NCBI GenBank assembly: GCA_964349125.1
Contig: CAYGFH010000001.1
Span: 562,107 to 626,106 of the forward strand
DNA from: an uncultured Gammaproteobacteria bacterium
GTDB taxonomy: Bacteria; Patescibacteriota; Microgenomatia; UBA10105; UBA927
DNA length: 64,000 nucleotides
Reading direction: 5' to 3'
Shown: piece after piece, positions 48,172-63,667 of the stretch
How positions within the stretch are numbered: position 1 is the first letter of the stretch
How the letters are laid out: each line of letters opens with the position of its first letter
Translations under genes and position numbers: made by a program
Notes under the pieces: model-generated
Seen by the model: the letters and a program-made list of their open reading frames with translations, nothing else
The model's database searches: none
What the model was told of the DNA's origin: nothing

Positions 48172-48684
48172 ATGCCACACCAGATATTTCATGAATCGGT
48201 CGTATATCTATATGTCCTTACGCTCAGCATTATTCTGACTGTTGCGTATATACAAGGGTTGCTCACCTCATTTCTACAAGCAGGATTATCCATCATATCT
48301 TGTGCATTTGATCTCATTTTTGGAAAAATATTTTTAGGTTGGGTATCACGCACCCGCGACGCAATAGCCTTTCGCATCACGGATCCCGTAAATTCGTTTA
48401 TAGACAGAATACCCAGAGGCTTCAAAGCCATGTTTTTTACACTGTTAGGATACAGCATATTTGTGTTGGATCATCTGTATAACACGACACTATTTGCAGA
48501 AGATGAAACAACATTTTATGACATTGTTATATACGGTCACAAATACTGGATAACAGATTATGCTCTCATGATTGGTGGAGTATTTCTTTCTTATGGACTC
48601 CTGTATTTTTTTATTCTTATCTCAGAAGTCATTCTTTATTTCGTCGACCGACGCATTAAAATTTTCGTCGTAGTACGGAGGTAA
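48172..48684 (+). CDS. Hypothetical membrane protein
   Basis: Four predicted TM helices. Confidence 0.3.
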   Translation: MPHQIFHESVVYLYVLTLSIILTVAYIQGLLTSFLQAGLSIISCAFDLIFGKIFLGWVSRTRDAIAFRITDPVNSFIDRIPRGFKAMFFTLLGYSIFVLDHLYNTTLFAEDETTFYDIVIYGHKYWITDYALMIGGVFLSYGLLYFFILISEVILYFVDRRIKIFVVVRR

Positions 48685-48779
48685 CCCCGGTTAACAACAG
48701 TAACGCACTTGAAAGTGCAGATAATACACCTCTCTTGTTCATTTGCTCTTTTACACCCCAAGTCTTATAGTATCAGTAT

Positions 48780-49930
48780 ATGCCACGGGATATCGTAAAA
48801 GAAGCACAACGTATAGAGCTCCATACCAATTCTTCAGATGATGCGCGTGATAGTATGTTCGACGATGCGGTGCAACTTGTTGCAAAACACGACATGGCTT
48901 CAGCATCTCTGCTTCAACGCAACCTTTCATTCGGGTACGCCAGGGCAGCCAGAGTACTCGATCAACTCGAAGAAGCAGGTGTCATTGGTCCTGCCGAAGG
49001 GTCCAAACCTCGTGAAGTCCTTATTTCTTCGTATGAAGACTATATAAATAGATCATTTAAAAAGCCAAACGTTGCCCTTGATGAAACAGATCCTGATTGG
49101 AACTCCTACAAATCTCCGAATTGGAAATCGCATGTAACACACTCATCATCAATTCTGCTGTTTGACGCAATTTCCAAAAACAGTGGTACTTCCCCGTTAT
49201 CGTTTCCAATCGGCTGGGAAAAAGAATCACTGAAAATCACGACTCTGTTAGAGACACCGCACTGTATTATCACGGGAAGCCCGCACAGCAGAAAATTGGA
49301 ATTTTTGGATACCATGCTTTTGTCACTTATAGCAGTAGCGTCTCCAATAAATTTGCGCATAGTGCTACTCGACGGCGCTCATTATTTGTCGCCATATACC
49401 GGCATTCCTCATCTGCTCACGCCGGTTACAGCTGAACCGGATAAAGCACTCGCAGCACTTCGGTGGGGAGAAATGGAAATGGAGCGCAGATGGAACGAAT
49501 TTTCAAAAGCAAACTGCAGGGATATTGCCTCATATAACAAAGCGTCATCAAATCCCATGAGTCATATAGTGTATGGCATCACCCAGATAGAGTATGTATG
49601 TCCTATGCAACAAATGAATTCATAGAGGGTCTTAAACATCTGACGTCGTTGGGATCCCGCGCCGGAATTCATATGGTGCTGGTATCAGATTCATTAGCAT
49701 CCCGTACTATTGCCAAAGAGATTAGAGAAAATATTCCAAATGTCATCTCGTTTAAGTCGACATGGGATGGAAGTTCAAAGCCAAAAGACTCCGAAGGTCT
49801 CGCACCAAACGAATTACTGTATAAAAATGATGCGGATAACACAGTAACGACACTGGATGCTCCATTGTTAGAAGAATCCGAAGTTCTAGGAATTCTTACG
49901 GAAATAAAAAAGAGCAACAATCATCCTTAG
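48780..49930 (+). pseudogene. Degenerate FtsK/SpoIIIE-like ATPase with an N-terminal gamma domain, split by a frameshift (48780..49625 frame 0; 49598..49930 frame 2)
   Basis: Gamma domain [10 protein letters not shown]...[27 protein letters not shown] at the N-terminus. Motor-domain blocks [24 protein letters not shown] and, in the second frame, AGIHMVLVSDSLASRTI...IPNVISF. The Walker A is degenerate (ITGSPHSRK rather than GTTGSGKS) and the Walker B is LLDG. Confidence 0.6.
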
Positions 49931-50379
49931 AAATTCTCTATCACAAGTTTTTTCATTTCCATCATATTGGCAAATGCATTCGGGCGCTTCATCAGTTCCC
50001 CCATATTCTCCGGGACTATTTGCCAACTTAACCCGTATTTGTCTTTGCACCATCCGCACTGTTCGGATTCCTTGACGCTTGAAAGCTTACTCCAATAATA
50101 ATCAATTTCTTCCTGATCTTTACATGGGACGGCAAAAGATACAGATTCATTAAACGTAAATTCAGGTCCGGCATTGATTGCCATAAATTTGTTGCCAGAA
50201 AGTTCAAATTCTACTGTCAATACTTTTCCGGCCAAGTCTTTTTGAAAATCAGCCAGTCCCTCACTGGGATAATATTCTGTGGACAATATTTTACTGTCAG
50301 GAAATACAGATACATAAAAGTCTACAGCTTCCTTCGCATTCCCATTGAACCATAAATTTGGAGTGATCGTTTTTTTCAT
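49927..50379 (-). CDS. VOC-family protein, PhnB-like
   Basis: MKKTITPNLWFNGNAKEAVDFY N-terminus typical of the PhnB/3-demethylubiquinone-9 methyltransferase-like glyoxalase fold. Confidence 0.55.
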   Translation of the reverse strand: MKKTITPNLWFNGNAKEAVDFYVSVFPDSKILSTEYYPSEGLADFQKDLAGKVLTVEFELSGNKFMAINAGPEFTFNESVSFAVPCKDQEEIDYYWSKLSSVKESEQCGWCKDKYGLSWQIVPENMGELMKRPNAFANMMEMKKLVIENF

Positions 50380-50421
50380 ATGATTTATTGTAACATACCA
50401 CACATAACGCACTCGCACAGT

Positions 50422-50462
50422 TGTCATTGCGAGTCCCGATGCACTTCGGGACGCGGCAATCT
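50422..50462 (+). repeat. REP/MITE-like intergenic element, copy C, with perfect inner hairpin GTCCCG-ATGCACTT-CGGGAC
   Basis: TGTCATTGCGA [hairpin] GCGGCAATCT, followed by AACCATGAAC and a heptamer tract. Confidence 0.6.
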
Positions 50463-50498
50463 ACTCACTGACTACGAACCACCAACCATGAACTAACA

Positions 50499-50540
50499 CG
50501 CTTTGCGGTTAACGATTAACGATTAACGATTTGCGATTAC
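50499..50540. repeat. Heptanucleotide tandem tract (CGCTTTG CGGTTAA CGATTAA CGATTAA CGATTTG CGATTAC)
   Basis: Six 7-nt units. It overlaps the stop codon of the DUF2207 gene. Confidence 0.6.
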
Positions 50541-52417
50541 CACTTTCCACCTCCCCCTCCTCCGCCTCCCCCTCCGGAGTAACCACCCCTGCGTCCACCG
50601 GATGAATGAGATGAAAATCCACTGGAAAATCCTCTAGTCGAAGACGTGCGAGTCGGTGTGTAATACGTATTTGAGTTCGACGGGCTATGTGTAAAAGTTT
50701 TAGAGACAGCGTGATGAAACCGAGTGAACACAAAGCCTTGCGTCTGATCATAAGAGGTATACCAACTTGGAACCTTTAACTCCAGCTCTTTAAAACGCGC
50801 TAACCAAATTTTTTCCACTCCAAACGCTATAGCATATGGCAGTAATTTTTCAAACATAAACTGCTTTTCAGACATAAACTCAAATTGCCTATCCTGGCTT
50901 TTCAAAAATTGCTTCAGCGCGATAATCATATTCTTTGTTACCACTCCATATTCAGTTTTTTTTGGCTTCGCATTTTGAATCGTAAGTATGACCACCAATA
51001 GAGGGATATTCACTGTAAGGAATGCCAAAAATGATAAGAATGATTTTGAACTTCGCGATGCATCTATGGGCTTTTCATATATCTTTTCATCTATGCACAT
51101 AGCATGGATCATGTCGTATATGTTCTCTAATTTGTCTGCTATTTCAAGTTCATCAACGTTAACCATCTTAAAATTTATCGTAGAAATTGCTTTATCCAAA
51201 TGATCCAAGTTAAGCTCTGATGATTTTCCGTCAAACACAGTTTTACCATTAATTTCTATCGTTGTATTGCTTTGTGAATCTTCAGTATTTATATACGAAG
51301 GGGTGAATATTACGTTCAATAATTTTTCTTCAAACGGCAGAAGACCTGGATCTTTCATGTTGGTATTCTCTCTGTTGAGTTTTTCAAAATAAAATTCACC
51401 TTTTTTCTTTTCAAAAATTTTTAGATATCCCCTGCGGGCTAAATCGACGATGGTCGCCGTTATTTCCGGCATGCCTGCACTACCATTCAGTATTGTTCCG
51501 CATACTGCGGGTGGATATTCACGTTTTGAGAGTGCTGATTTTGGCACCGAGAATGAAGCACTTGCAATACCCATCGGTACTTTCGGATCTTTACCAAACA
51601 ATTTCCATTTGATGACATACAAAAACGGAAAAACTATAAACCAAAAAACGATCAACACCTGGATCCACTCAGGAATTTGAAGCATTTCTGCACTGCTATC
51701 ACTCAAGGATGCGCGAGGGGTGGCGACTGAAATCGGCATCGGATCTACAACCGAAACTATCTGCTTTGGGAAGCCGGCAAGGATGGTGAATCCTTCTTTC
51801 GGGTTCAAAGTGCGACGAAGTGAAAATTTGTATACACCGGCATAATAACTACTTACACACGCAGCTTCGTTTGATCCTAATATTCCCGTGAAACAATCAA
51901 ACTTCACGTTTTGAGCAGGAATTTTTTCAGGCAATATCACATTGACCACAGAAGAGGTTATGCCATCTTCCCAAGCGTTACCGGTTACGTTCCAATAAAA
52001 TTCGTCATGATCAGAAAAATACGTGATACCCCCTTTTAATTGATAAGAAATTTTGAAGAACTGAGGACCTTTGAGAAATATATTCGGATCACCGATTTTT
52101 ATGCTTATGACACCGGAGGTGTTTGATGTTGAGAATCTGTATGGAACTCCTTTATCGTTCACTACTGTAATATCAGTGATACTCAGTTGAAATTTCTGAT
52201 TGTTCGAATTAGTTTTGACTGTCGGAATATCTCGAAGTATGCCATGCACCGGACTACTACCCAAGTCGTAGAAAATTTTTTCGGTAATTTTTGCCGAGCC
52301 GTCTTTGTGTAACACTATATCCGCATTAAATTCTTTGATCTGGCTTGCAAAAACTGTCTGAGGCACGACAATTGCAAAAAGTATTATCGTTAAGAGTCTC
52401 CAAAGAAACATACGCAT
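50537..52417 (-). CDS. DUF2207-family membrane protein with C-terminal Gly-rich tail
   Basis: Signal peptide, large extracellular domain, TM helices and the characteristic ...SGGRRGGYSGGGGGGGGGGKW terminus. Confidence 0.6.
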   Translation of the reverse strand: MRMFLWRLLTIILFAIVVPQTVFASQIKEFNADIVLHKDGSAKITEKIFYDLGSSPVHGILRDIPTVKTNSNNQKFQLSITDITVVNDKGVPYRFSTSNTSGVISIKIGDPNIFLKGPQFFKISYQLKGGITYFSDHDEFYWNVTGNAWEDGITSSVVNVILPEKIPAQNVKFDCFTGILGSNEAACVSSYYAGVYKFSLRRTLNPKEGFTILAGFPKQIVSVVDPMPISVATPRASLSDSSAEMLQIPEWIQVLIVFWFIVFPFLYVIKWKLFGKDPKVPMGIASASFSVPKSALSKREYPPAVCGTILNGSAGMPEITATIVDLARRGYLKIFEKKKGEFYFEKLNRENTNMKDPGLLPFEEKLLNVIFTPSYINTEDSQSNTTIEINGKTVFDGKSSELNLDHLDKAISTINFKMVNVDELEIADKLENIYDMIHAMCIDEKIYEKPIDASRSSKSFLSFLAFLTVNIPLLVVILTIQNAKPKKTEYGVVTKNMIIALKQFLKSQDRQFEFMSEKQFMFEKLLPYAIAFGVEKIWLARFKELELKVPSWYTSYDQTQGFVFTRFHHAVSKTFTHSPSNSNTYYTPTRTSSTRGFSSGFSSHSSGGRRGGYSGGGGGGGGGGKW

Positions 52418-52514
52418 ACTTCAATTATAGTATCGCTGATCACAAACACCAGATCCTATTTCGAGATTGCGTATGACTACTCTAATCAATCACTCGCATT
52501 CCATCTTTTATAAA

Positions 52515-52577
52515 CGATTTACGCTTTACGATTTACGATTTACGATTAACGTGTAACGGATAGCGATTAACGATATT
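52515..52577. repeat. Heptanucleotide tandem tract (nine 7-nt units, CGATTTA type) in the divergent promoter region between the DUF2207 and nuclease genes
   Basis: Seen directly: CGATTTA CGCTTTA CGATTTA CGATTTA CGATTAA CGTGTAA CGGATAG CGATTAA CGATATT. Confidence 0.6.
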
Positions 52578-52600
52578 CGCTATGGTGCTATAGTAATACT

Positions 52601-53272
52601 ATGCCCACGAAAACTCCCAAGAAGTCGAAGAGCAAGATAGCCACTCGCCCACTTCTCATCGGTATTACAGCAGCGGCGCTTGCGCTTCTCACATCGGTCG
52701 CTTCGTTTAATCAACTGCGCGGAGAGAAGGTCATAGAGGTTATAGACGGAGACACGTATCGTATAGAAAACAGACAAATTGTGCGTCTCTACAGTATCGA
52801 TGCCCCTGATGTGGATGTATGCATGGGGCAAGAAGCGAAAGAGAAACTATCCTCTCTCATTCTCGGTAAACGTATCACACTCCAAAACATCCGCTCGGGC
52901 GGATTTAACAGAGTGATGGGGTATGCATACGTGGATGGCAAATCAGTGGAAACAGAGATGATGAAAGGCGGATATGCAGTACTCACTCGGGGTACCAAGG
53001 AACTACCGGAACTACTGGAATCTAGCACATATGCCAGACAGAAAAAACTCGGCGTGTTTAGTGATGCGTGTTATCAGATGGAAAATAAAGTAAATCCCAA
53101 ATGTAACGTAAAGGGTAATATCGGGGAGACAAAGCAGGACAGATATTATTTCACTCCCTCATGTCCCAACTATACACAGACAGTCGTCTGGACCAGTTTC
53201 GGCGACCGGTGGTTCTGCACAGAGAAAGATGCTGTTGAAGCGGGGTTTGTTAAAGGAACAAAGTGTAAATAA
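52601..53272 (+). CDS. Thermonuclease (staphylococcal nuclease, SNase-like) family protein with Cys-rich C-terminal extension
   Basis: Signal anchor, then SNase core motifs (VIDGDTYRI, YVDG) and a C-terminal CxxC-rich region. Confidence 0.65.
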   Translation: MPTKTPKKSKSKIATRPLLIGITAAALALLTSVASFNQLRGEKVIEVIDGDTYRIENRQIVRLYSIDAPDVDVCMGQEAKEKLSSLILGKRITLQNIRSGGFNRVMGYAYVDGKSVETEMMKGGYAVLTRGTKELPELLESSTYARQKKLGVFSDACYQMENKVNPKCNVKGNIGETKQDRYYFTPSCPNYTQTVVWTSFGDRWFCTEKDAVEAGFVKGTKCK

Positions 53273-53433
53273 TTTATTATCTAATTAATATTTAGTATTC
53301 CCCGAGCCTCAACTCACTATACCAGAAAGTGCCTAGGTTTCTATCCTTCAGACTTTCCAAAATCTAGGCTATATGGTGAAATGAGGCAAAGGTGGAACGA
53401 TAAAAAGAAACTACAAAACACTCCTGCGATTTC

Positions 53434-53919
53434 TTATTGAATAAAGAATATACACAGTCCAGCGTAAATTAATCCAAAAACAATAGGAATATAGAGTTCA
53501 ATATGAGAAAAAGGGAAATATTTACTATTATCTTTGCCTTCTCCCAAAATTTTCCACTCATTTTCATAAAGAGCAATTGGAAGCCTTTCCTCTATTTGAT
53601 GTAATACTTTAAACTTCCCGGTATTTAACTGCTTGTAGGAACGAATTAAAAACCAAAAAATTATGCTGATTATTACTCCAATAGCGGAAAGTAAGATATA
53701 TACCCATTTCGATTCCTGGAAAAATTCGATTTGAGTAGATAAGCCAATTATTGAAATTAAAGCTGTATTTATTGTTAAAAAATAGCTGTTTGCACTCTGT
53801 CTTCTATCGCTTGTTTTTTCAATGCTTTCTACATAAAGCTTATATTGGTCAAATAAATGTTCCTTATAACTCTCTCCATAATTCTTTTCTGATTCTGTAA
53901 ATAATTGATTATTTTTCAT
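53434..53919 (-). CDS. Small 3-TM membrane protein, last gene of the hsd-linked operon (candidate effector)
   Basis: 161 aa with three hydrophobic helices. Its start is 2 nt after the stop of the TIR-like gene. Confidence 0.4.
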   Translation of the reverse strand: MKNNQLFTESEKNYGESYKEHLFDQYKLYVESIEKTSDRRQSANSYFLTINTALISIIGLSTQIEFFQESKWVYILLSAIGVIISIIFWFLIRSYKQLNTGKFKVLHQIEERLPIALYENEWKILGEGKDNSKYFPFSHIELYIPIVFGLIYAGLCIFFIQ

Positions 53920-53921
53920 AG

Positions 53922-54299
53922 CTACCTATTGCCTGCAATTAAAGATTTGATATTATCCCAAGTCCATCGATATGTTTTATCTAATCCTACTGGAACAGGA
54001 CAACTCTTATTTGCATACCCGTGAATGCCGAAATGGGGAATACCAGCTTGAATAGCCATCTGAATCTCTTTAAGCACCCCTTCGCACGCATAGGTATATG
54101 GGCCTACCATAACAATAAAAATGTCACATTGAGAAATCTTCTCGTAGACTCTTTGTTCCCAATTTCTTTGAGCAAATGGTTCTTTAACAGACCAATCAGC
54201 GATTTCAAAAGGAGTGTCTGAATTTCTTGCCTGACCTACAATGGAATCTCTTAAAAATTGGTCATTATCAAAGTCAAAACTTATAAATGCTCTTTTCAT
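53922..54299 (-). CDS. TIR-like domain protein (ThsB/DUF1863-like)
   Basis: N-terminus MKRAFISFDFDND resembles the ThsB/DUF1863 KRVFFSFHYxD start. Downstream segments W...CDIFIVMVGPYT...GVLKEI..A...GIPHFGIHG fit the same family. Confidence 0.5.
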   Translation of the reverse strand: MKRAFISFDFDNDQFLRDSIVGQARNSDTPFEIADWSVKEPFAQRNWEQRVYEKISQCDIFIVMVGPYTYACEGVLKEIQMAIQAGIPHFGIHGYANKSCPVPVGLDKTYRWTWDNIKSLIAGNR

Positions 54300-54304
54300 A
54301 TTCT

Positions 54305-55828
54305 CTACTGCATTCTTTTATTAATAATTACTTTCAAATCATCAATTACCTCGTAACACATATCATCATTCAGTTTTTCAGTAGTATTAAAGTATTCTTT
54401 TGGATGAACGAAATTCCTTTTCTCTCTAATCTTGTCTGCTCTCCTAATTAAATCCTCATCAAAAATTTGTGTATGAACTTTTTTCAATTTCCATAGTAAT
54501 TTCCCAAGTGTGAAATCTTCTGTATCGGGTGAAAAATAATCTTTTTTCTCTACTTCACTCATCCAGTCTAAGAGAAAGGCTTCCAAAACTGAACCTGAGA
54601 GTATTAGAAAGGATTTATAGAGCTTTTTATCAATGCATGTGTTCAATTCCTTTAAATCTCCTTGTATAACCTTCTCAATAACATCTTTTTTAAACATCCG
54701 TAGTACTTCTAATTCTTCAATAATAAATTCCCGTTGAATGGGTTTATCGGGAGTGGCATCATCAAACAATTCCTTATTTATGGCTTGAATAACATCAACT
54801 TTATCTTTTAAGAAAAGTGTCTTGAATACACTCTCTGATTTCTGTTGAGTAATCTTATCAGGCAAGATAACTGGTAACTCTAGTAAATCTTTCGACCTTA
54901 TATGAGGAAAAAAAGTGCCTCTTTGAAATAATTGAATATATTTCATCACAGTCTCACTTTGAAGATAAAGAAAAAGATATTCAGGTGTGATTTCTTCCGA
55001 TTTTGGTCTAATTACTACTAAAAAAGTGGATGAAAAGATAGATTCCTTGAAATCGTCAGTAACGAGATAAAATTTCTTGTTTCCTGAAAATGAATCTGAG
55101 AATAAAATATCTCCTTTTTGTAATCTAATTGTAGTCTGTTGTTCTTCTGAAAGGTCTTTAATACTTAATGGATAGACAAAGTCTTTAGTTTTAATAACAT
55201 GCCCTTTGGAGCCTTCGAGCTTACGAGGTCGTAGTATCTCCGCCAATTCTTTTAATGCCTTAGTTTTTTCTTGCTTTAGCTTCATTAATGCCTGTCGAGA
55301 ATCTGGCTCGTAAAAGCTGATTTGAAGATTATCTAAGTCGATTTCTGAATAATTAAGTTTCCAAATGCTACGGCTTTCATCAGTTGCTTGATTGATAGTG
55401 TCGTTATTAATTGTATTTTCTAAACTAGAAATATAATCTTTGTATGACTTCGTAATTTGTTGTTCACCAATTATTCCAGATTTTCTATAGTCGAGCTTAC
55501 CAGTAAATGTCTCCTTTGAAAGATACTTACTGAAATACACATGCTGAGGCTTACCTTTTTGAATAACTAAAAGTATAAACTTAACATTTGTTGCTGGTTT
55601 CCAAATTTCAGCTAAGTCGAAAATTCCATTAATATACCAGTCATTAAATATTCTTTGCCTTGAATTTACTTCTTTAATTGAATGTAAAAGCATCACTGGA
55701 ACAACTAATCCAACTTTCCCACTATCTGTATTCAATTTAGAGGTTATATATTCTGTTTCAGAGTTTTTTAAACCTGATATCGGATAACTTTTTCGTTCCT
55801 CAATTAATTCCTGAATATCAATTTTCAT
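54305..55828 (-). CDS. HsdS-like protein (degenerate TRD / conserved-helix architecture) fused to an uncharacterised ~170-aa C-terminal domain (possible HEPN-like Rx6H)
   Basis: Central segment ...FLVVIRPKSEEITPEYLFLYLQS...LLELPVILPDKITQQK resembles an HsdS TRD plus the conserved LPLPPLEEQ region. The C-terminal REKRNFVHP is suggestive only. It overlaps hsdS by 11 nt. Confidence 0.45.
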   Translation of the reverse strand: MKIDIQELIEERKSYPISGLKNSETEYITSKLNTDSGKVGLVVPVMLLHSIKEVNSRQRIFNDWYINGIFDLAEIWKPATNVKFILLVIQKGKPQHVYFSKYLSKETFTGKLDYRKSGIIGEQQITKSYKDYISSLENTINNDTINQATDESRSIWKLNYSEIDLDNLQISFYEPDSRQALMKLKQEKTKALKELAEILRPRKLEGSKGHVIKTKDFVYPLSIKDLSEEQQTTIRLQKGDILFSDSFSGNKKFYLVTDDFKESIFSSTFLVVIRPKSEEITPEYLFLYLQSETVMKYIQLFQRGTFFPHIRSKDLLELPVILPDKITQQKSESVFKTLFLKDKVDVIQAINKELFDDATPDKPIQREFIIEELEVLRMFKKDVIEKVIQGDLKELNTCIDKKLYKSFLILSGSVLEAFLLDWMSEVEKKDYFSPDTEDFTLGKLLWKLKKVHTQIFDEDLIRRADKIREKRNFVHPKEYFNTTEKLNDDMCYEVIDDLKVIINKRMQ

Positions 55829-56930
55829 AATTATTTTTCTTGAATGTGTTTTGCATCAATGATTGGAATTGATTATCTAATTCTCGAGACTGCTCAAGCA
55901 TTTTTTGCTTAAGTACTTCAGTGTCCTTAGCAATCATTGCAAAGTCATCTTGTAACTCTATAGGTGGAATAATCATTTTAATTTTTTCAAATTCACCCTT
56001 AGTAAGAATTCTTTTCATACCTCTGGTCGCATGGTCTTGAATATATGTTCTAGAATTTCTTAAAAGCCAGTACAAAAATAAAGAGTTTATCTTTTTATTA
56101 GGCTGAATAGCATTAATTTGTTGATTGAATGACACTTTTCTATCAGCAATTGCAACTCGCCCAATAGATGCAATGCTACCAGCAATACAAGCCATTAGAA
56201 CTGCTCCAGACGTAACAAATCTAGCCTTATTTAGGCCGTTCTCCGATAGATATTCGCTAGCATTAGTTATATACAGATTTTCTTCTACAATATTGTCAGT
56301 TTTTATCCATTCAATAAATCTGGATGAATAATTGTCTTTTTCATTGCGAGAAGGAGTATTGCCAGTTATTATTTCTCCAAAGGACTTCAATTCCGACTTC
56401 TCCCAACTTTTCGAGTTAGAAATTGGGTCTCCAAACATTTCTATAAAGACTGACTTTATGTATTCATCTAGTAAGCCTGTTGTCTGCTTCCGCTTTTGTC
56501 GAAGGGCTTCGGCTTTGTCTAGGATATTTACAATATTTCTTTGTTCAGTGATTGAAAGCAAGGGTATTTCGGGGTCAGTTAAATTGTTTAATTTAATATA
56601 TTTAATCACTCCTCCAATAGATAATTGTCTCAATTTTTCTACATATTTAAATAAAAACCAATAAAGGTATTTTGTATCTAAAATCGTCTCATCTAAGCTC
56701 TCAATAATATAAGTTCTTTGATAGGCATCAAACTTTCCTTCATAGTACTTCACATTTAAGTCTCCGTTTCCAGCGACTAGCACACATTTGCAGTCATAAG
56801 TATAGGAGTTGATTTTGTATGTATCTTTAGAGCAAGTAAAAAAAGGGTATGCGCCATCATCAGAGCCCGCATTAGCATCCAGCTTACCTGTTTTAATTTT
56901 TGTTAATCTTCCAAGTTGACTAGTATTCAT
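55818..56930 (-). CDS. hsdS: Type I restriction-modification specificity subunit HsdS
   Basis: Two TRDs separated by a conserved central helix, an HsdS-type N-terminus and a 4-nt gap to hsdM. Confidence 0.8.
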   Translation of the reverse strand: MNTSQLGRLTKIKTGKLDANAGSDDGAYPFFTCSKDTYKINSYTYDCKCVLVAGNGDLNVKYYEGKFDAYQRTYIIESLDETILDTKYLYWFLFKYVEKLRQLSIGGVIKYIKLNNLTDPEIPLLSITEQRNIVNILDKAEALRQKRKQTTGLLDEYIKSVFIEMFGDPISNSKSWEKSELKSFGEIITGNTPSRNEKDNYSSRFIEWIKTDNIVEENLYITNASEYLSENGLNKARFVTSGAVLMACIAGSIASIGRVAIADRKVSFNQQINAIQPNKKINSLFLYWLLRNSRTYIQDHATRGMKRILTKGEFEKIKMIIPPIELQDDFAMIAKDTEVLKQKMLEQSRELDNQFQSLMQNTFKKNNYEN

Positions 56931-56933
56931 ACT

Positions 56934-58445
56934 CTACTTTAGCTTTAAAAGACCATCCATAATTTCTTTTTCCAGTTTTTCAATCTTTTCTAATATTATT
57001 TTTGGCGAGTCATATTTGACCTCCTTATAATCGGCATCCTTGTAACTATTGATGCTTAGGTCGTATTTATTTGCTTCTATTTCTTTTCTAGGTACAAAAA
57101 AGACTTTTTGTTTACGATCAGTATCAGTCTGCTGATTTCTACTTTTCCATTTGCTAATAATGTCTGGAATATCGTTATCTGTAATTCTTGCTCTTTTATC
57201 ATCAAGACTATAGCCATCTGATTGCATATCGTAGAACCAGATACTTTCTGTGCTTCCACCTTTTACAAATATCAAAACTGCGGTGCTCACCCCTGCATAA
57301 GGCTTGAATACTCCTGATGGCATGGAAATTACACCTTGAAGCTCACAATCATCAATCAGCATCTTTCGCAAATTCTTGTGAGCGTTTGAAGAACCAAAGA
57401 GGACACCATCTGGAACAATAACGCCAGCTCGGCCACCAATCTTGAGGGATTTGATGATTCGGTTAATGAAAAGTAGTTCTGTTTTAGTTGTCGGAAGAGA
57501 TAGTGACTCATTGATATCACCCTTATCAATACTTCCTTTGAATGGAGGATTGGCCATGATGACATCGAAATAGTTGTCTTCATCATATTTTTTGGACAAC
57601 GTATCTTTTTGTTCTATGTTTGGAATTGAAATACCATGCATCATTAAGTTCATGAGGCCAATACGAACCATACTGTCGTCCATGTCATAGCCGTAGAATG
57701 TTTTTTCTTTAAGTTGTTTCCATTGGCGTTCATCAGTGAGTTTGTCGCCTAATAGTCCGCGGGTAAGGTCATTTTCATCAGTGGTTTGGTGCTCCTTACT
57801 GGTGTGAGCAGTCAAGATATGCTGATAAGCACCTAAGAGGAAACCACCAGTCCCGCAGGCGGGATCACAGATTGTGTCACCAAGCTTTGGGTCGACAAGT
57901 TCGCAGATGAGCTGGATGATATGTCTTGGGGTTCTAAATTGACCTAATTTACCGGCACTCGTTATTTCTGCAAGCAAATGTTCGTACACATCACCCTGAG
58001 TATCCTGAAATCCTTGTCCTTTTTGTTCTTGTTGAGAAATTTCTTCATAAATTTCATCGATGATGTTGATAGACTCCACAACTAACGAAGGTTTGGAGAT
58101 AATGAACACTGCATTTCCCATGTGTTTCGAGTAGGCGCTATTTTCGGAGTTTAGATTTTTAAGGAAAGGAAATACTTTTGTTTGAATGTGGGTCAGCATC
58201 TCACCACCTTCCAAGTGCCGGAAGTGACTCCAACGCATGTTTTCATTTTCACCTGCAAAAATTGACTTGTAGGATTCACCAGTAAATTCAGAGTCATGCA
58301 TCTTCTTTAAATCCATTTGATCAAGCCGTTTCATGAATAGTAGATATGAAATCTGTTCTATGGCGGTGAGTGGATTAGAAATTCCACCACTCCAAAATTT
58401 ATCCCATAGCCGATCGATTGATGATTTGATAGTAGTGTTAAGCAT
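56934..58445 (-). CDS. hsdM: Type I restriction-modification N6-adenine DNA methyltransferase HsdM
   Basis: HsdM N-terminal domain with the catalytic motif IV NPPF (IMANPPFKG) and motif I DPACGTGGFL. Confidence 0.9.
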   Translation of the reverse strand: MLNTTIKSSIDRLWDKFWSGGISNPLTAIEQISYLLFMKRLDQMDLKKMHDSEFTGESYKSIFAGENENMRWSHFRHLEGGEMLTHIQTKVFPFLKNLNSENSAYSKHMGNAVFIISKPSLVVESINIIDEIYEEISQQEQKGQGFQDTQGDVYEHLLAEITSAGKLGQFRTPRHIIQLICELVDPKLGDTICDPACGTGGFLLGAYQHILTAHTSKEHQTTDENDLTRGLLGDKLTDERQWKQLKEKTFYGYDMDDSMVRIGLMNLMMHGISIPNIEQKDTLSKKYDEDNYFDVIMANPPFKGSIDKGDINESLSLPTTKTELLFINRIIKSLKIGGRAGVIVPDGVLFGSSNAHKNLRKMLIDDCELQGVISMPSGVFKPYAGVSTAVLIFVKGGSTESIWFYDMQSDGYSLDDKRARITDNDIPDIISKWKSRNQQTDTDRKQKVFFVPRKEIEANKYDLSINSYKDADYKEVKYDSPKIILEKIEKLEKEIMDGLLKLK

Positions 58446-61248
58446 GTTGGAAAATTTGATTCGTAAAGTTTAATATTTCAAACTGCATTGATTTATCAAA
58501 TAATCCCAAGATTCCATTTTCATGAATTTTGGTAAATGGCTCCTGAACCAAATCTTTCTTGGTTAGTGATCCATTCTCGATAATAAATGTTTGCAGAGTC
58601 TGTAAAAATTGAATCTGCTTGGAACTTAAGGTATTGTGATCAGCGATGAATTCAGCAAATGCCACTGACACTTTTTCTGGAAAAGTTACTAGGCCACCAA
58701 TCCCCATAATGTATTTAATTAAATCAAGAAATCTAACTTGGCGGGCATCATAGGCTTTTTGAAGGTTTTCTTCGGTTGGATATGGTTCGTATTCAGCGAG
58801 TGTTTGAGCCAACTCATCGATTTCTTCACCAGTAATGCTGTCACCGTTTTTAATCCTTCTTAAAGTATCATTTTCCTCTTCTAATTTTTTGATCAATGCT
58901 TCAACTTTTTCGCGATACTTTTGAATAGTCACACGCTCATTGGCGGGACCAAATTTGATATACATTTTTTCTGAGGTTATATCGCGCAAATCAAAGGCAT
59001 CCTGACTTGGCTTAATACCTTCCTCTCGATACTTCATGAGAGGAGCTATTCGATCAATCAAAACATCAAGGTCGGCATCCGTGGCTTTAGCTAGATATCC
59101 GCTATGTAGCACTTCCTCAATCAAATCCTTTTCGTTGGCAACCACATTAACAGTGAGCGGTAAGTCGGATACCATTTCAATCAACACATTTTCGAGCGCA
59201 CTGACTTTCTTTTCTTGATTGTCAGCTTGAGAAAATTTGGCAATCGAATACTGCATGACTTTTAACTCAAAACTCATTGCCTTGTAGTCCTCACCTGTCC
59301 GCGTTCTCATAAGTGGTGCAATGTCTTTTTGAAGTAATGCGAGTTTGTCTTCATTTAGTCGTGCCCAAAATTGTTCATCGAGCGCATCGAGGGTATTTTT
59401 TGCGTCAAGGATAATCACATTATTTTCAGGCAACTTTTTAACCTCGTCCTTTAGTTTTTGGATGGTTGTTTGAATTAGGACTTCATCACTTAGTGATTGG
59501 GCGACCGAGAGTTTTTCGAGCTTGGTTTCAAATAACCTGACTGGAATCGGTTTGGATTGACGATCAATCTTGCCTTTAGGATTCATTTCAAAATAATCAA
59601 AGTTTTCCCAACAATCCATTATTAAGAACTTATCTTTTTGGGTGCACCAAGGCTTAAGTTTCTTTGGCTCTAATATGCGGGTGCCACGACCAATCATTTG
59701 CCAGAATTTGGTATACGAAAAAACAGGTTTGGCAAAAACAAGATTGACCAATTCTCGAACATCAATTCCGGTATCAAGCATATCAACACTGATGGCGATT
59801 CTTGGGAAATCATTGTTCACAAACTGATCAAGCAAGCCACCTTTACCGTAGACTCGAGAGTCATCTGAAACGATCACTTTAGCAAAATTACCTTTATGTT
59901 CTGGGTATAAGTCATCGAAAATTTCTTGAAGCCGTCTCGCGTGCTTCATGGTCATAGCAAAAATAACGGATTTACCAGGGAGTGTTCCGCTATTATCTTT
60001 TATGGATTCTTCCATGAATTCCTGTACGATCAGTGCATTGGTTCCACGATTCGTGACCTTTTTTTCGAGATCAGTGCCCTCATAGTTTATTTCTTCTGGT
60101 TCTTTTCCGTCTGAAATCAGCCGCTGTTGCTCTGCGAGTGAAATATTAGTTTTTCTAATGCCTTCCTTTTGAAATTTTGTGCGGATTTTGAGTACTTCAA
60201 AGTCACTCAGATACGGCGGTTTGTTGTTGATAGCTTCTTCGTATGAATATGCATATGTCGGCAGACCATCATCACAATTAAATAGACTGAAAGTGTTATG
60301 TTCTACTGCATCTTTTGGCGTAGCCGTTAATCCAAGTTGGACTGTGTCAAAATAATCAAAAATGTTTTTGTAGACGTTATAAATCGAACGGTGACTTTCA
60401 TCAGCTACAATCAAATCAAAGAAGTGTGGACTAAGTGGACAGTCTTTATTCTCAATGATATTTAACATGGTTGGATATGTCGCAGAATAGATACGTCTAT
60501 CTGTTGCGATTTCAGTCTCCCCAATTTTTGGCCAAACTGGGGCATTAGGGATATATTCCTTAAATGCGTCTAGAGCTTGATTACGAAGCGCAATTCGATC
60601 TACAAGAAATAATACTCGTTGAACTCTATTTGTTCTCATTAGAACATCCATCATGGCAGCGCATGTTCTTGTTTTTCCGGTTCCAGTAGCCATAACAAGC
60701 AAGGCTTTTCTTTTACCTTTATCCATGTTTTCAAATACAGAACGGATTGCTTCAATCTGGTATGGGCGACCAGCTATATCACGATTAATTAATTCTTGAG
60801 AAATTGGCTTCTGATTTTTTCTTAAAAAGAGTAGTCGTTCTAAATCTTTTTTGGTGGGGAATCCATAAACTTTTCGAGGCGGGAATTTTTCTGTGTCCCA
60901 GAAATAAATATCATTGCCATTGGTGTAGAAAACAAACGGCATATCTTTGCCAGAATTCTTTTGAATGTTAACTGCATATTGTCTGGCTTGTTCCTGTCCT
61001 ATACGAGCATCCCTTGAAGTTTTTTTTGCCTCTACAACTGCCAAAGGATATCCATCATCACCGAGTAATACATAGTCAGCAAATTGATGTCCTTGATATT
61101 CGGATTGCTGCTCTCTAACTCCTTCAGGCAATCCGATCCATATATCCAATTCTGATGTGACATGAGAAGGATCATCTACATCCCATCCAGATTTCAGTAA
61201 GCGCTTATCAATTATTTCTTTTCTAGTTAATTCTTCACTCTTATACAT
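58438..61248 (-). CDS. hsdR: Type I restriction enzyme R subunit HsdR
   Basis: N-terminal nuclease region and SF2 helicase motifs (LVMATGTGKT, DESH in IVADESHRS). About 936 aa. Overlaps hsdM by 8 nt. Confidence 0.9.
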   Translation of the reverse strand: MYKSEELTRKEIIDKRLLKSGWDVDDPSHVTSELDIWIGLPEGVREQQSEYQGHQFADYVLLGDDGYPLAVVEAKKTSRDARIGQEQARQYAVNIQKNSGKDMPFVFYTNGNDIYFWDTEKFPPRKVYGFPTKKDLERLLFLRKNQKPISQELINRDIAGRPYQIEAIRSVFENMDKGKRKALLVMATGTGKTRTCAAMMDVLMRTNRVQRVLFLVDRIALRNQALDAFKEYIPNAPVWPKIGETEIATDRRIYSATYPTMLNIIENKDCPLSPHFFDLIVADESHRSIYNVYKNIFDYFDTVQLGLTATPKDAVEHNTFSLFNCDDGLPTYAYSYEEAINNKPPYLSDFEVLKIRTKFQKEGIRKTNISLAEQQRLISDGKEPEEINYEGTDLEKKVTNRGTNALIVQEFMEESIKDNSGTLPGKSVIFAMTMKHARRLQEIFDDLYPEHKGNFAKVIVSDDSRVYGKGGLLDQFVNNDFPRIAISVDMLDTGIDVRELVNLVFAKPVFSYTKFWQMIGRGTRILEPKKLKPWCTQKDKFLIMDCWENFDYFEMNPKGKIDRQSKPIPVRLFETKLEKLSVAQSLSDEVLIQTTIQKLKDEVKKLPENNVIILDAKNTLDALDEQFWARLNEDKLALLQKDIAPLMRTRTGEDYKAMSFELKVMQYSIAKFSQADNQEKKVSALENVLIEMVSDLPLTVNVVANEKDLIEEVLHSGYLAKATDADLDVLIDRIAPLMKYREEGIKPSQDAFDLRDITSEKMYIKFGPANERVTIQKYREKVEALIKKLEEENDTLRRIKNGDSITGEEIDELAQTLAEYEPYPTEENLQKAYDARQVRFLDLIKYIMGIGGLVTFPEKVSVAFAEFIADHNTLSSKQIQFLQTLQTFIIENGSLTKKDLVQEPFTKIHENGILGLFDKSMQFEILNFTNQIFQHA

Positions 61249-61289
61249 AATTCAGGGAATAGAATATTAAAATTACTTGACAGACATGA

Positions 61290-61507
61290 CCAAATTATAC
61301 TCCCCTCACGCACAAATTACGATCAGATATGTTATGTATTACCGAAGTTAACGCTCGGCCCATCCGATGATTCAGAACCTCCCATCCTAGCCTCAAATCT
61401 AGCTGTATCACCCACTATTTCCTTGATTTTTATACGCTCGAGCGTGAGAAAATCAAGAGCGCTTCCGATTCACTGGTACGTACTCAACCACCTCGGAGGT
61501 GGAAAGG
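61290..61507. repeat. Copy 1 of a ~220-bp direct repeat immediately upstream of hsdR
   Basis: Near-identical to the copies at 62281-62519 and 63272-63490. Contains the 36-bp imperfect palindrome CTTGATTTTTATACGCTC|GAGCGTGAGAAAATCAAG (61422-61457), a CCACCTCGGAGGTGG palindrome, and a TATAAT on the minus strand pointing at hsdR. Confidence 0.8.
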
Positions 61508-61547: not shown

Positions 61548-62273
61548 TTATTGGGAATTCTTTGGAAGTAATTCCAACAATGTGCTGGAAATTGTTCCCA
61601 CCTGATCTGAAGTTAGCACCATTGGATTTTCTTGAATTGATCTCAATAGCCATTTGGAACCTATAACCAATACCCCATCGATCGGCTTCATGCCAAAACG
61701 CAACACTGCATACGGACTAGAGAAAACTAAAATTGGCTTAATTCGTGGGGAAACAATATTTTTGTTATGTAAATAATCATCCAATCGGATGGCACTCCCA
61801 CGAGATTGTTTCAAAAAACCTCCTTCAAAAATCCCATGCACATACAGCTTATTGTCGCTATAACATATATTCCCCACATGACTTTTCACTTCCAATGCAA
61901 ATACTCCGGTCGGCCCAATGACAACAAAGTCTATATTCGAGGTCAATGGCGGAATTATTAAATTTTCTATGATCACATATTCATGAGACAATTGAAGGAG
62001 TACAGCTCGAACATCCGCCTCCCCGCCCAAACCTCTTGCCAATCGTCGCAATTTCCATAACGTTCTTTCAATTGGACCACGCATGATGATATAGAAAATT
62101 AATAGCAAGCTTCCTGCGATATTTGAACCAAGATGCGGAAATCCAAATGAGAACAAATACACCCAATATGTAATTATTGCGACAAAGAATATATACACGA
62201 GAAACAGACCATCAGTTTTGTGAGAAAATTTTTGTTCAATAAGATAGATATCTTTACCGTATATCTTTGCCAT
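61548..62273 (-). CDS. NERD (nuclease-related domain) protein with two N-terminal TM helices
   Basis: NERD signature GLGGEADVRAVLLQL...NIDFVVIGPTGVFALEVKSH. Confidence 0.75.
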   Translation of the reverse strand: MAKIYGKDIYLIEQKFSHKTDGLFLVYIFFVAIITYWVYLFSFGFPHLGSNIAGSLLLIFYIIMRGPIERTLWKLRRLARGLGGEADVRAVLLQLSHEYVIIENLIIPPLTSNIDFVVIGPTGVFALEVKSHVGNICYSDNKLYVHGIFEGGFLKQSRGSAIRLDDYLHNKNIVSPRIKPILVFSSPYAVLRFGMKPIDGVLVIGSKWLLRSIQENPMVLTSDQVGTISSTLLELLPKNSQ

Positions 62274-62280
62274 ACTAAAA

Positions 62281-62519
62281 CTATACTCTCCCCATTCACA
62301 AATTACACTTGAGAAAGATCAAGTGTAAACGATCGGATGTGTTATGTATCACCGTAACTCAAACCAGGCCCTTCCGATGAGTTAGAACCGCCCATCCTAG
62401 CCTCAAATCTAGCTGTATCACCCACTATTTCCTTGATTTTTATACGCTCGAGCGTGAGAAAATCAAGAGCGCTCGGGTCCTCGTACTGTGTGATGCTCAC
62501 CTCGAAGGTGGCAAAAGTA
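62281..62519. repeat. Copy 2 of the ~220-bp direct repeat (upstream of the NERD gene), with a 20-bp palindromic insertion CACTTGAGAAAGATCAAGTG
   Basis: The core CCATCCTAGCCTCAAATCTAGCTGTATCACCCACTATTTCCTTGATTTTTATACGCTCGAGCGTGAGAAAATCAAGAGCGCT is identical to copy 1. Confidence 0.8.
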
Positions 62520-63254
62520 TTAGTTTCCGAGTAGTTTGATGATTGCTTCGAAGTGATCTGAACCTAAGTTTTTTTTCGAAAGATAGACGCCCCTGGGATT
62601 CTTATGTTTCACGTAATACGGATAGTCTGTTAATTCCGGAACAGCTTTAATCCAAAATCGTTCCATCCGAGTCATAATCACGTAAGCTTTCTTTTTCATT
62701 AATTCTCTCAGAAGATAAAACGTATAGTTTTGAGATTCAGGATACTGATCAGGATATAGAAGGCGTTTAGATCTATACGGGAAGTATTCCATAAATAATA
62801 CTTTGTTTGCCACATTTTCCCAGTTTAAACCTATATGTTCATGTAATCCTCGGGTATGCATCCAATACCAGCAGCGACTAGCTGTTCCATCTGTATAAAC
62901 CCATTCCCTATATTTTGGTGTCATTGAGTAAATCCCAGGAGTATTTAAATGAAATAAATTCTTATAATCAAGGTCCATAATGTCTTGGTAGTCAGGTCTT
63001 AATGACAATTTTGAATCATGGCCGGGATTTGCCTGTAATACTATAACTTTTGCAGTATGTGGATTACCGAAATATGGAAATGGTATATCCTCTGTATGTA
63101 ATGAATACGTGTCGATAATTTTATTTTTCTTTTCTTCACCTGAATATCTGGAAACGATTTTCTGTAATTTCTTTTGATATTCTAAAACCCACTCCTGATC
63201 AACATCCAAAATATATGGTTGTCGTTTGCTGAGTGTATTCCATGGATTTTCCAT
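62520..63254 (-). CDS. Hypothetical protein (244 aa) between two repeat copies in the defence island
   Basis: ORF with no recognisable motif. Its upstream region carries repeat copy 3. Confidence 0.35.
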   Translation of the reverse strand: MENPWNTLSKRQPYILDVDQEWVLEYQKKLQKIVSRYSGEEKKNKIIDTYSLHTEDIPFPYFGNPHTAKVIVLQANPGHDSKLSLRPDYQDIMDLDYKNLFHLNTPGIYSMTPKYREWVYTDGTASRCWYWMHTRGLHEHIGLNWENVANKVLFMEYFPYRSKRLLYPDQYPESQNYTFYLLRELMKKKAYVIMTRMERFWIKAVPELTDYPYYVKHKNPRGVYLSKKNLGSDHFEAIIKLLGN

Positions 63255-63271
63255 AATTACATTAATTTTCT

Positions 63272-63490
63272 CAAATTATACTCCCCTCACGCACAAATTA
63301 CGATCAGGTGTGATATTTTCACCGAAGTAAACGTTCGGCCCTTCCGATGAGTCAGAACCGCCCATCCTAGCCTCAAATCTAGCTGTATCACACACTATTT
63401 CCTTGATTTTTATACGCTCGAGCGTGAAAAAATCAAGAGCGCTGCGATTCACTGGTACGTACTCAACCACCTCGAAACCGAAAGATGTTT
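63272..63490. repeat. Copy 3 of the ~220-bp direct repeat
   Basis: About 90% identical to copy 1 by eye over its full length. Confidence 0.8.
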
Positions 63491-63517
63491 CAACAAATAC
63501 TAAATCTTTGTTATTTG

Positions 63518-63625
63518 GCCTCGTTTTTGAATGCCACCTCGGAGGTGGAAGATGATCCGCAAGAATTTTAAAATTCACCCCAAATTTAGCCTCGTTTTTT
63601 ACTACCACCTCGGAGGTGGAAGTTG
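63518..63625. repeat. Two 37-bp direct repeats (GCCTCGTTTTTGAATGCCACCTCGGAGGTGGAAGATG and GCCTCGTTTTTTACTACCACCTCGGAGGTGGAAGTTG) separated by a 34-bp spacer. Each contains the CCACCTCGGAGGTGG palindrome.
   Basis: Seen directly. A degenerate third unit lies at about 63465-63488. Confidence 0.6.
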
Positions 63626-63667
63626 AAATAGGATTATCCCTAGACTTACGACAGCGAAGCGATAGGT

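Follow-up and report, generated by a model that had tools for sequence, protein, structure and literature searches.

Type I restriction-modification (R-M) operons are known carriers of additional defence genes, as exemplified by PrrC (PMC3710099), TgvAB (PMC11411939) and the candidates that Payne et al. 2024 collected through 'guilt by embedding' (10.1101/2024.01.29.577857). The DUF4145 domain is a recognised HEPN family that is tied to R-M operons (PMC3710099), and in RAZR it forms an active antiphage abortive-infection RNase with the catalytic residues R146 and H154 (PMC13017515). Among the Thoeris systems, in which a ThsB-type TIR protein is paired with an adjacent effector, Yirmiya et al. 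2025 (10.64898/2025.12.03.692087) list 29 putative types, including one with an unvalidated '3TM' effector. Here we analyse an operon that occupies the minus strand of positions 53434-61248 in a window of 64,000 nucleotides (the whole stretch of DNA under study; contig CAYGFH010000001.1, positions 562,107 to 626,106, of assembly GCA_964349125.1). In this operon hsdR, hsdM and hsdS are followed by genes for three further proteins of 507, 125 and 161 amino acids (aa), namely a fusion of a single target recognition domain (TRD) with a HEPN domain, a ThsB-type TIR protein, and a protein of the 8xMP family with three transmembrane (TM) segments. We consider it likely that this is a layered defence operon, made up of a type I R-M system and two independent add-on modules (TRD-HEPN and TIR-8xMP), rather than a single six-gene machine.

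Operon layout and distribution of the accessory modules

The six open reading frames (ORFs) of the operon run head to tail:

58438-61248 (minus strand): hsdR, 936 aa, EcoAI/EcoEI-like type I restriction subunit; Pfam ResIII 5e-40, EcoEI_R_C 2e-25 and HSDR_N; PADLOC REase_I 3e-167
56934-58445 (minus strand): hsdM, 503 aa, N6-adenine methyltransferase subunit; Pfam N6_Mtase 4e-65 and HsdM_N; PADLOC MTase_I 3e-180
55818-56930 (minus strand): hsdS, 370 aa, canonical two-TRD specificity subunit; Pfam Methylase_S in two stretches, 1e-28; PADLOC Specificity_I 6e-89
54305-55828 (minus strand): 507-aa gene, R-M-linked accessory protein with a methyltransferase remnant, a single TRD with coiled-coil helix, and a HEPN domain
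53922-54299 (minus strand): 125-aa gene, ThsB-type mini-TIR; Pfam PF08937 ThsB_TIR, E 6.8e-9
53434-53919 (minus strand): 161-aa gene, 3-TM membrane protein, predicted Thoeris-type effector; Pfam PF24838 8xMP, E 1.3e-42

Overlaps of 8 nt and 11 nt join hsdR to hsdM and hsdS to the 507-aa gene, respectively, and gaps of 3, 5 and 2 nt separate hsdM from hsdS, the 507-aa gene from the 125-aa gene, and the 125-aa gene from the 161-aa gene. An earlier sequence-only reading of this DNA had described six minus-strand genes whose overlaps and gaps do not exceed 11 nt; the coordinates bear this out, and so do the publicly available gene calls for this genome. NCBIfam identifies HsdR, HsdM and HsdS alongside Pfam and PADLOC, and the three proteins show the features of a type I system, with a superfamily 2 helicase and a nuclease N-terminus in HsdR, an N6-adenine methyltransferase in HsdM and two TRDs in HsdS.

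The two add-on modules are distributed independently of each other. Across 183 collected loci, members of the TRD-HEPN family occur in 12 and 8xMP in 111, and the two are found together in a single one (L100), which is the window's own genome. The TRD-HEPN gene accompanies type I R-M genes in all 11 independent loci, none of which has a TIR or 8xMP gene, and conversely none of the 110 8xMP loci outside the window's genome has a TRD-HEPN gene. The operons with orthologous R-M genes (L094, L096 and L001; HsdR 55% and HsdM 69-76% identical to those of the window) possess the 507-aa gene and lack TIR-8xMP. The closest relative of the window's TIR-8xMP pair lies in L097 (TIR 82%, 8xMP 75% identical), an operon of the form R-M-S-TIR-8xMP without the 507-aa gene, whose R-M genes are unrelated to those of the window (30-33% identity; HsdM 33%). 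As the two modules overlap solely in the window's genome and differ in their evolutionary partners, we regard them as independent add-ons. The sequence-only reading had treated the last three genes as one unit and had itself named their co-occurrence in relatives as the check; among the 183 loci the trio is found in the window's genome only. Its further suggestion, that the HsdS-like protein acts as a sensor for the TIR and membrane protein pair, becomes unlikely on the same counts.

The contexts of the TRD-HEPN genes outside the window are as follows (R, M and S denote the hsd genes, numbers the TRD-HEPN protein):

L001: R-M-S-506; operon-end slot empty
L002, L003: fragmentary type I system, with the TRD-HEPN gene about 1.7 kb downstream
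L004-6: R-S-DUF8168-M-519, then a YhcG/NucS-like nuclease
L094, L095: R-M-S-507 (76% identity), adjoining CBASS; operon-end slot empty
L096: R-M-S-506 (67% identity), then a 1027-aa SIR2_2 protein
L098: 601-aa form, about 6 kb downstream of R-M-S-SduA_C
L099: M-S-332

The end of the operon can thus be viewed as a variable cargo slot, since it is empty in L001, L094 and L095, holds a SIR2_2 gene in L096 and TIR-8xMP in the window. The SIR2_2 gene (L096, 7110-10193) sits where the window has TIR-8xMP. The closest orthologue of the window's operon of R-M and 507-aa genes, in L094 and L095, is immediately preceded on its upstream side by a CBASS module with a SMODS/AGS_C cyclase and a SAVED effector (L094, 1010-3476; L095, 484-4251).

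The composition of the operon is uneven. The G+C content of hsdS, the 507-aa gene, TIR and 8xMP (53400-57000) is 31-33%, that of hsdR and hsdM (57000-61250) is 38-40%, and that of the flanks 39-42%. The low G+C of the 3' part is consistent with horizontal exchange. The host genome is small (about 0.84 Mb), and the source is a metagenome-assembled contig of about 0.81-0.84 Mb. A scan for consensus promoters and terminators gave nothing above shuffled controls, and an Rfam scan of the window returned no RNA families.

The 507-aa TRD-HEPN protein

The 507-aa protein can be divided into three parts, with a putative active site in the last:

55319-55828 (minus strand): N-terminal ~170 aa, the C-terminal half of a gamma-class N6-methyltransferase domain, without motifs I and IV
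54629-55273 (minus strand): residues 186-400, single TRD with the conserved-region helix (half-HsdS)
54308-54628 (minus strand): residues 401-507, C-terminal HEPN (DUF4145-like) domain
54404-54418 (minus strand): R471-N472-F-V-H475 motif, putative HEPN catalytic site (translation verified)

Pfam detects one Methylase_S TRD (residues 188-353) and a weak match (E 0.003) of residues 34-135 to positions 174-275 of the 311 positions of N6_Mtase. An AlphaFold model based on 23 homologues is confident (mean predicted local distance difference test score, pLDDT, 85.4), and its C-terminal domain adopts the four-helix up-down HEPN fold. The best structural match for the TRD and helix part is Esub1 (PDB 8VSQ), and those for the order methyltransferase-TRD-C-terminal domain are CamA and M.BseCI. 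The sequence-only reading had recognised an HsdS-like TRD with conserved helix followed by a C-terminal domain of ~170 aa, for which it guessed at a HEPN fold. One TRD with its helix stands while a two-TRD architecture does not, the methyltransferase remnant had escaped mention, and the C-terminal domain shrinks to about 105-145 aa; the HEPN guess is borne out by the fold.

The 507-aa protein itself has no match to PF13643 (DUF4145). Its homologues P0023 (2e-6), P0274, P0281 and P0322 exceed the gathering score, and distant relatives of ~500 aa pass the Pfam DUF4145 threshold and have Methylase_S. On this transitive sequence evidence, together with the fold, the C-terminal domain is a DUF4145-like HEPN domain. 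R471, N472 and H475 are invariant in all 23 family members, and the domain also has invariant YKS, LEA and DW motifs. A HMMER scan with the HEPN domain alone recovered 306 representative clusters at E <=1e-3, 139 of them at <=1e-10, most being proteins of ~500-525 aa with the domain at the C-terminus. TRD-HEPN is hence a sizeable family (about 300 representative clusters at 50% identity) of fixed architecture.

Size variants of the family throw light on its origin. In the family alignment a complete methyltransferase is seen in the 600-aa relatives P0020 and P0025, motifs I (DPVCGxGS) and IV (D[LP]PMG) included, the members of ~507 aa start past motif IV, and those of ~340 aa retain the TRD and HEPN domains only. 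As the variants lose motifs or the whole domain, the methyltransferase part is apparently dispensable and decaying. Mean pairwise identity is lowest in the N-terminal remnant (36%), and reaches 54% (up to 82%) in the TRD and 59% in the HEPN domain. These comparisons suggest that the 507-aa protein descends from a single-chain methyltransferase-TRD-HEPN enzyme and has shed the catalytic half of the methyltransferase. According to Anantharaman et al. 2013, HEPN domains linked to R-M are fused to nucleases and helicases 'but not to the methylases'; this generalisation is contradicted by P0020, P0025 and P0397, which are methylase-HEPN fusions.

The 507-aa protein differs from a canonical HsdS, which consists of two variable TRDs and two conserved helices and nothing else. 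We also considered the gene as an hsdS shufflon or spare allele and rejected this, as BLASTP against the hsdS of the operon gives an E-value of 5.2 and the two share no recombination repeats. The TRD of the family is kept among operons whose genuine HsdS proteins share just 28-39% identity with that of the window. The claim of the sequence-only reading that this is not an ordinary second HsdS therefore stands on the extra domains, the lack of similarity and of shared repeats, and the conserved TRD. Identity with a PrrC/RloC-type anticodon nuclease was likewise rejected: the protein lacks an ATPase domain, and has the R-M-embedded context and the HEPN domain alone in common with these.

The TIR-8xMP cassette and the flanks of the operon

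The 125-aa protein scores 36.5 bits against PF08937 (cutoff 21.2), and a profile of 37 TIR homologues matches solved TIR/ThsB structures (8fz9 TIR at 1e-6, 8wcf, and 6lhy, BcThsB). The key residue maps as follows:

54066-54068 (minus strand): codon of E78, predicted catalytic glutamate of the TIR (codon verified)

E78 is invariant in all 37 homologues and aligns with the glutamate of the VRYEI motif in Bacillus cereus ThsB. We take the latter to be E85, the known catalytic residue, by our own numbering of the sequence given in Yirmiya Table S1. Over its full length the TIR is 35% identical (E 3e-18) to its counterpart in Pseudomonas sp. 1-7, which belongs to a characterised type IV Thoeris system, and a homologue of about 52% identity (P0198) adjoins a Peptidase_C14 gene, which is the type IV configuration. 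By sequence, then, the 125-aa protein is a ThsB-type TIR with the glutamate expected of a Thoeris system, as the sequence-only reading had surmised. PDC-M50 was considered as the identity of the pair and set aside: PADLOC PDC-M50B matches the TIR weakly (9e-6) and denotes a different system.

The 161-aa protein is the 3-TM membrane protein that the sequence-only reading had placed in the effector position of a Thoeris-like pair. It matches PF24838 ('octameric membrane protein family (8xMP)') with 145.3 bits against a cutoff of 30, over profile positions 1-134 of 136. More than 1000 homologues (1,019 protein clusters at 90% identity) are found in Patescibacteria, many other bacterial phyla and archaea, with a mean column identity of 74% across phyla. 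The monomer model (pLDDT 75.5) has long helices at residues 11-63 and 71-112 and a last helix at 138-160, and hydropathy marks two strongly hydrophobic segments (69-95 and 139-161). The first membrane helix is amphipathic, with N44, N51, T52, S56, G59 and Q63 as invariant polar residues along it, and the soluble segments contain the invariant residues K35, D38, R39, R40, Q41, H107, E121 and H139. As the chain makes three membrane passes, both soluble segments lie on one side of the membrane. This model suggests that 8xMP may have a cytoplasmic ligand site and a polar pore lining. Full-text search found no relevant paper on 8xMP or PF24838, and no PADLOC model matches it. In comparison with the validated Thoeris effector families of types I-XI (ThsA SIR2-SLOG, Macro-TM, caspase, DUF2270, DUF6650, SLATT and others), Pfam DUF2270 gives no match and SLATT_3 a very weak one (E 0.14), leaving PF24838 as the sole family. 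Carriage by viruses is slight, with three weak 8xMP matches in 2.9 million viral contigs.

Gene neighbourhoods point to a close bond between the two proteins. In 68 of the 80 genome loci collected with the 8xMP profile, a small TIR gene lies within 700 bp of 8xMP, mostly directly upstream and on the same strand; in the window the gap is 2 nt, which is the adjacent two-gene arrangement of Thoeris. The TIRs at these 68 loci belong to the clade of the window (46), to a second clade (14) or to both (8), and both clades are also found beside caspase-like genes, as in type IV Thoeris. Of the loci without a small TIR in this range, five end at a contig edge, and the others show an IS110 insertion between TIR and 8xMP, a TIR_2 protein, a STAND NTPase with the TIR-like DUF4062, a GGDEF protein, or pentapeptide-repeat proteins. 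TIR-8xMP is thus an autonomous cassette found across bacteria and archaea. The partners other than a ThsB-type TIR include an nSTAND1 NTPase with N-terminal DUF4062 (L072, 8546-11014), a stand-alone GGDEF cyclase (L092, 8590-9267) and a TIR_2 protein with an OmpA/TPR protein (L090, 5881-7982). They hint that 8xMP can serve other signal generators.

The '3TM' effector of Yirmiya et al. 2025 is very probably 8xMP. A hidden Markov model (HMM) made from their '3TM'-labelled TIRs finds the second TIR clade beside 8xMP. Among the 12 metagenomic loci nearest to one such TIR, ga0073581_1010215 (79-84% identical), ten (L101, L103-L108 and L110-L112) have a downstream 3-TM gene of 159-162 aa that matches the 8xMP HMM; these are relatives of the '3TM'-labelled TIR rather than the exact IMG genes. 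The two exceptions are L102, with a 329-aa non-TM gene, and L109, which is cut at the contig end. More distant metagenomic loci encode non-membrane proteins of ~320 aa, presumably caspases.

Cassettes of this kind recur in and beside type I R-M operons. One or more type I R-M genes lie within the collected 8 kb in 16 of the 80 8xMP loci, and two or more in 12; as just 39 of the 80 loci span at least 12 kb, this linkage is undercounted. Typically the genes, all on one strand, are arranged as hsdM-hsdS-(cargo)-TIR(s)-8xMP-(cargo)-hsdR (Pfam: T1RH-like HsdR, Methylase_S), and the start of hsdR abuts or overlaps the stop of 8xMP in four loci (L066, L074, L077 and L080). Between hsdS and hsdR other cargo is also seen, among it a DUF4143 ATPase, DUF1828/1829, RhuM-Fic and AAA_21. 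One locus has a solitary TIR-8xMP pair. In four assemblies (L007-L010, 1079-8892) the pair stands behind a PLD/SNF2 helicase and a 1189-aa MmeI-like methyltransferase, a restriction-like setting that is not of type I.

Genes of neighbouring defence types were looked for around the operon. No SIR2/SLOG/Macro ThsA-like gene turned up in a scan of the six genes and of the eight ORFs closest to them (two upstream, 61548-62273 and 62520-63254; six downstream, within 48172-53272), in keeping with the absence of ThsA claimed by the sequence-only reading. A CD-NTase (SMODS), as expected of CBASS, was not found among the six genes or their immediate neighbours.

Upstream of the operon, an element of ~200 nt occurs in three copies of 81-90% identity (61249-61475, 62274-62500 and 63255-63450), in minus-strand orientation. 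Each copy is immediately upstream of a successive minus-strand gene, namely hsdR, a NERD-domain gene and a 244-aa gene without a Pfam match. Every copy contains a perfect hairpin (CTTGATTTT..ACGCTCGAGCGT..AAAATCAAG) and terminates in GAGTATAAT, and the element gives rise to short spurious ORFs that share one peptide (ALDFLTLERIKIKEIVGDTARFEARMGG). It may be a common promoter or operator of a small defence island; its RNA fold is not significant (z +1.2), and no copies were found in other loci. The palindromes CCACCTCGGAGGTGG (63513-63626) and CCACCTCCGAGGTGG (61493-61507) recur intergenically upstream of this repeated element, and a 43-nt unit is present twice within 63513-63626. The NERD nuclease-related gene (61548-62273, minus strand) upstream of the operon and on its strand, and a staphylococcal-nuclease-like gene (52601-53272, plus strand) that converges on it from downstream, may be additional defence or nuclease genes. 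Further away, an FtsK-like gene (48780-49930, plus strand) appears as two overlapping ORFs of 281 and 110 aa, with FtsK_gamma preceding the FtsK_SpoIIIE motor, an unusual order; it may be frameshifted or rearranged.

Proposed function and comparison with known systems

As a layered operon, the six genes might act at three levels. In the first, the type I system would restrict unmethylated DNA. In the second, the 507-aa protein could, like PrrC, serve as a latent HEPN RNase. The R-M complex would hold or position it, or DNA would do so through the TRD, and upon the failure of restriction it would be set free to shut down translation. Since dimers are the acting form of HEPN RNases, and the helix is what joins half-S proteins into dimers, a ligand-dependent rearrangement of the dimer is a plausible switch. 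In the third, the TIR, with E78 as its predicted catalytic residue, would sense infection and turn NAD+ into an ADP-ribose-derived signal, plausibly a cyclic ADP-ribose (ADPR) isomer, since its closest characterised relative makes N7-cADPR. By analogy with ThsF and ThsH, this signal might bind the conserved, positively charged juxtamembrane region of an oligomeric 8xMP, whose pore would open or assemble, so that the membrane depolarises and the infection aborts. Of this picture, the genes present, the identities of their domains and the separate distribution of the modules come from the data, and the RNase activity, the chemistry of the signal, the formation of a pore and any crosstalk with restriction are proposals.

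Several points weigh against this interpretation. Co-transcription of the six genes is suggested by their spacing alone. In the HEPN domain the invariant motif is RNxxH (Rx3H), one residue below the canonical Rx4-6H, and R468, which would give an Rx6H spacing in the protein of the window and occupies the DUF4145-equivalent position, is arginine in 14 of the 23 members. The octameric state of 8xMP comes from the Pfam family name alone, and PDB sequence and profile searches and Foldseek of the model found no significant solved relative. The column conservation of 8xMP across phyla is unusual for a killing effector and could reflect a sensor or housekeeping-like role. The '3TM' type is not among the experimentally tested systems of Yirmiya et al. 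(Table S2; doi 10.64898/2025.12.03.692087), and anti-phage defence by TIR-8xMP through an ADPR-derived signal is, by analogy, a candidate function. Finally, the recurrent, translationally coupled position of TIR-8xMP between hsdS and hsdR leaves room for functional coupling to restriction, where the layered interpretation sees co-regulation only.

Such coupling would follow the PrrC precedent (PMC3710099), with TIR-8xMP and/or TRD-HEPN silenced by the R-M complex and firing once anti-restriction proteins disable it. The presence of type I R-M genes in 16 of the 80 8xMP loci, the four loci where hsdR abuts 8xMP, the further copies behind an MmeI-like methylase with an SNF2/PLD helicase, and the unbroken R-M linkage of the TRD-HEPN family speak for it. 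Nevertheless, in about 80% of the TIR-8xMP loci the collected flanks are free of type I R-M genes, some pairs being clearly solitary, and the hsdS-hsdR slot holds many unrelated cargo genes, as would a general cargo hotspot (Payne et al. 2024, 10.1101/2024.01.29.577857); we therefore think coupling unlikely. A more specific wiring, which we hold to be improbable, would take the recurrent, translationally coupled position of TIR-8xMP between hsdS and hsdR, and the constant R-M linkage of TRD-HEPN, as signs of genuine guarding. TRD-HEPN would then be a decoy of the methylase-specificity core and, on detecting anti-restriction proteins that mimic DNA, would fire its RNase, and the disabled restriction complex would trigger TIR-8xMP. 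If true, type I R-M operons would be a platform for guard immunity in which the membrane effector is new and the TIR signal possibly so. We find it very improbable that the six genes form one integrated system in which the 507-aa protein senses DNA or phage and informs the TIR, whose signal then activates the membrane protein. Such a system would suit the dense arrangement of the genes, which are nowhere more than 11 nt apart, the conservation of the TRD, which might bind an unchanging ligand, and a TIR without an obvious sensor domain; yet L097 dispenses with the 507-aa gene, L094-96 have 507-aa homologues without TIR-8xMP, and the disjoint distribution and differing partners of the modules run counter to it.

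The roles of individual proteins might also be different. Were 8xMP a sensor, e.g. of membrane perturbation at phage DNA entry, and the TIR an NAD+-depleting effector, the two would form an NADase abortive-infection pair. This would account for 8xMP being far more conserved than its TIR partners, which are drawn from at least four TIR families, and many bacterial TIRs are indeed NADase effectors (Yirmiya et al., 10.64898/2025.12.03.692087). However, the same TIR clades swap between 8xMP and caspase-like proteins, which are signal-activated type IV effectors, and this puts 8xMP in the effector slot. The 35% identity of the TIR to a signal-producing type IV TIR, and loci with two TIRs and one 8xMP that look like Thoeris with multiple ThsB sensors, likewise make the exchange of roles rather improbable. 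The 507-aa protein, with its half-S architecture, could in principle be a working alternative specificity subunit, a homodimer that directs HsdM and HsdR to a second, palindromic target while its HEPN domain is non-catalytic. We give this little credence, as its TRD is conserved where the real HsdS proteins diverge, the opposite of diversifying specificity, it shares neither sequence similarity nor recombination repeats with hsdS, and the invariant R, N and H of the HEPN domain suggest catalysis.

On the layered interpretation, what appears to be a six-gene machine is three stacked layers, namely DNA restriction, a probable RNase, and a TIR that signals to a membrane effector, in a small genome. 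The sequence-only reading had considered the arrangement undescribed, which does not hold: R-M-embedded defence genes are established, and a TIR with a 3-TM partner had been predicted before. PrrC/EcoprrI, TgvAB, and the PDC and HEC candidates of Payne et al. 2024 are likewise extra defence genes, placed inside a type I R-M operon or appended to it, tightly spaced and co-oriented. The 507-aa protein resembles PrrC as a putative HEPN RNase linked to R-M (PMC3710099), but PrrC joins its HEPN domain to an ABC-ATPase, and the 507-aa protein joins it to a TRD and a methyltransferase remnant. RAZR, an abortive-infection RNase with catalytic Arg and His, belongs to the same DUF4145 family (PMC13017515); it has a zinc-finger N-terminus and an R-x7-H motif, in contrast to the TRD partner and the RNxxH motif of the 507-aa protein. 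Esub1 (half-S) and the single-chain methyltransferases of the CamA/M.TaqI type resemble it in its TRD-helix part and its domain order respectively, but, unlike the latter, the 507-aa protein lacks the SAM-binding (S-adenosylmethionine-binding) and catalytic half of the methyltransferase and has HEPN as its C-terminal domain. What is new on this side is the definition of the TRD-HEPN family, including the methylase-HEPN fusions reported as not observed by Anantharaman et al. 2013.

The TIR-8xMP pair is closest to '3TM' Thoeris (Yirmiya et al. 2025, Fig. 1C, Table S1), in which a small ThsB-type TIR is similarly followed by a three-TM protein of ~160 aa, and by sequence pattern the TIR of the window falls in Yirmiya cluster 2635319349. 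The listed '3TM' pairs, however, use the TIR clade YNLFISHSW...WNTxSIV, whereas the window uses FISFDFDND...WTWDN, labelled mostly 'Caspase - Type IV'. Yirmiya et al. 2025 (10.64898/2025.12.03.692087) leave the 3TM effector family unnamed and do not mention restriction systems. Two features of the cassette are new. The first is its recurrent placement between hsdS and hsdR, with about a fifth of the cassettes in or beside type I R-M and often abutting hsdR, which allows one to ask whether the embedded cassettes are only co-regulated or guard the restriction enzyme. The second is the tie between PF24838, with its near-obligate TIR association, and the '3TM' candidate, which makes the family a target for finding a new TIR signal-receptor pair. 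Type IV Thoeris (a TIR with the caspase-like ThsE, and N7-cADPR as signal) has a TIR homologous to that of the window, but its effector is a protease and that of the window a membrane protein. Types V (DUF2270/ThsF) and VII (SLATT/ThsH) have small effectors with several TM segments, for which ring oligomers are predicted whose positively charged pockets bind a cyclic ADPR isomer (10.64898/2025.12.03.692087); 8xMP likewise has three TM helices and conserved basic juxtamembrane residues, but differs from them in belonging to a separate family, PF24838.

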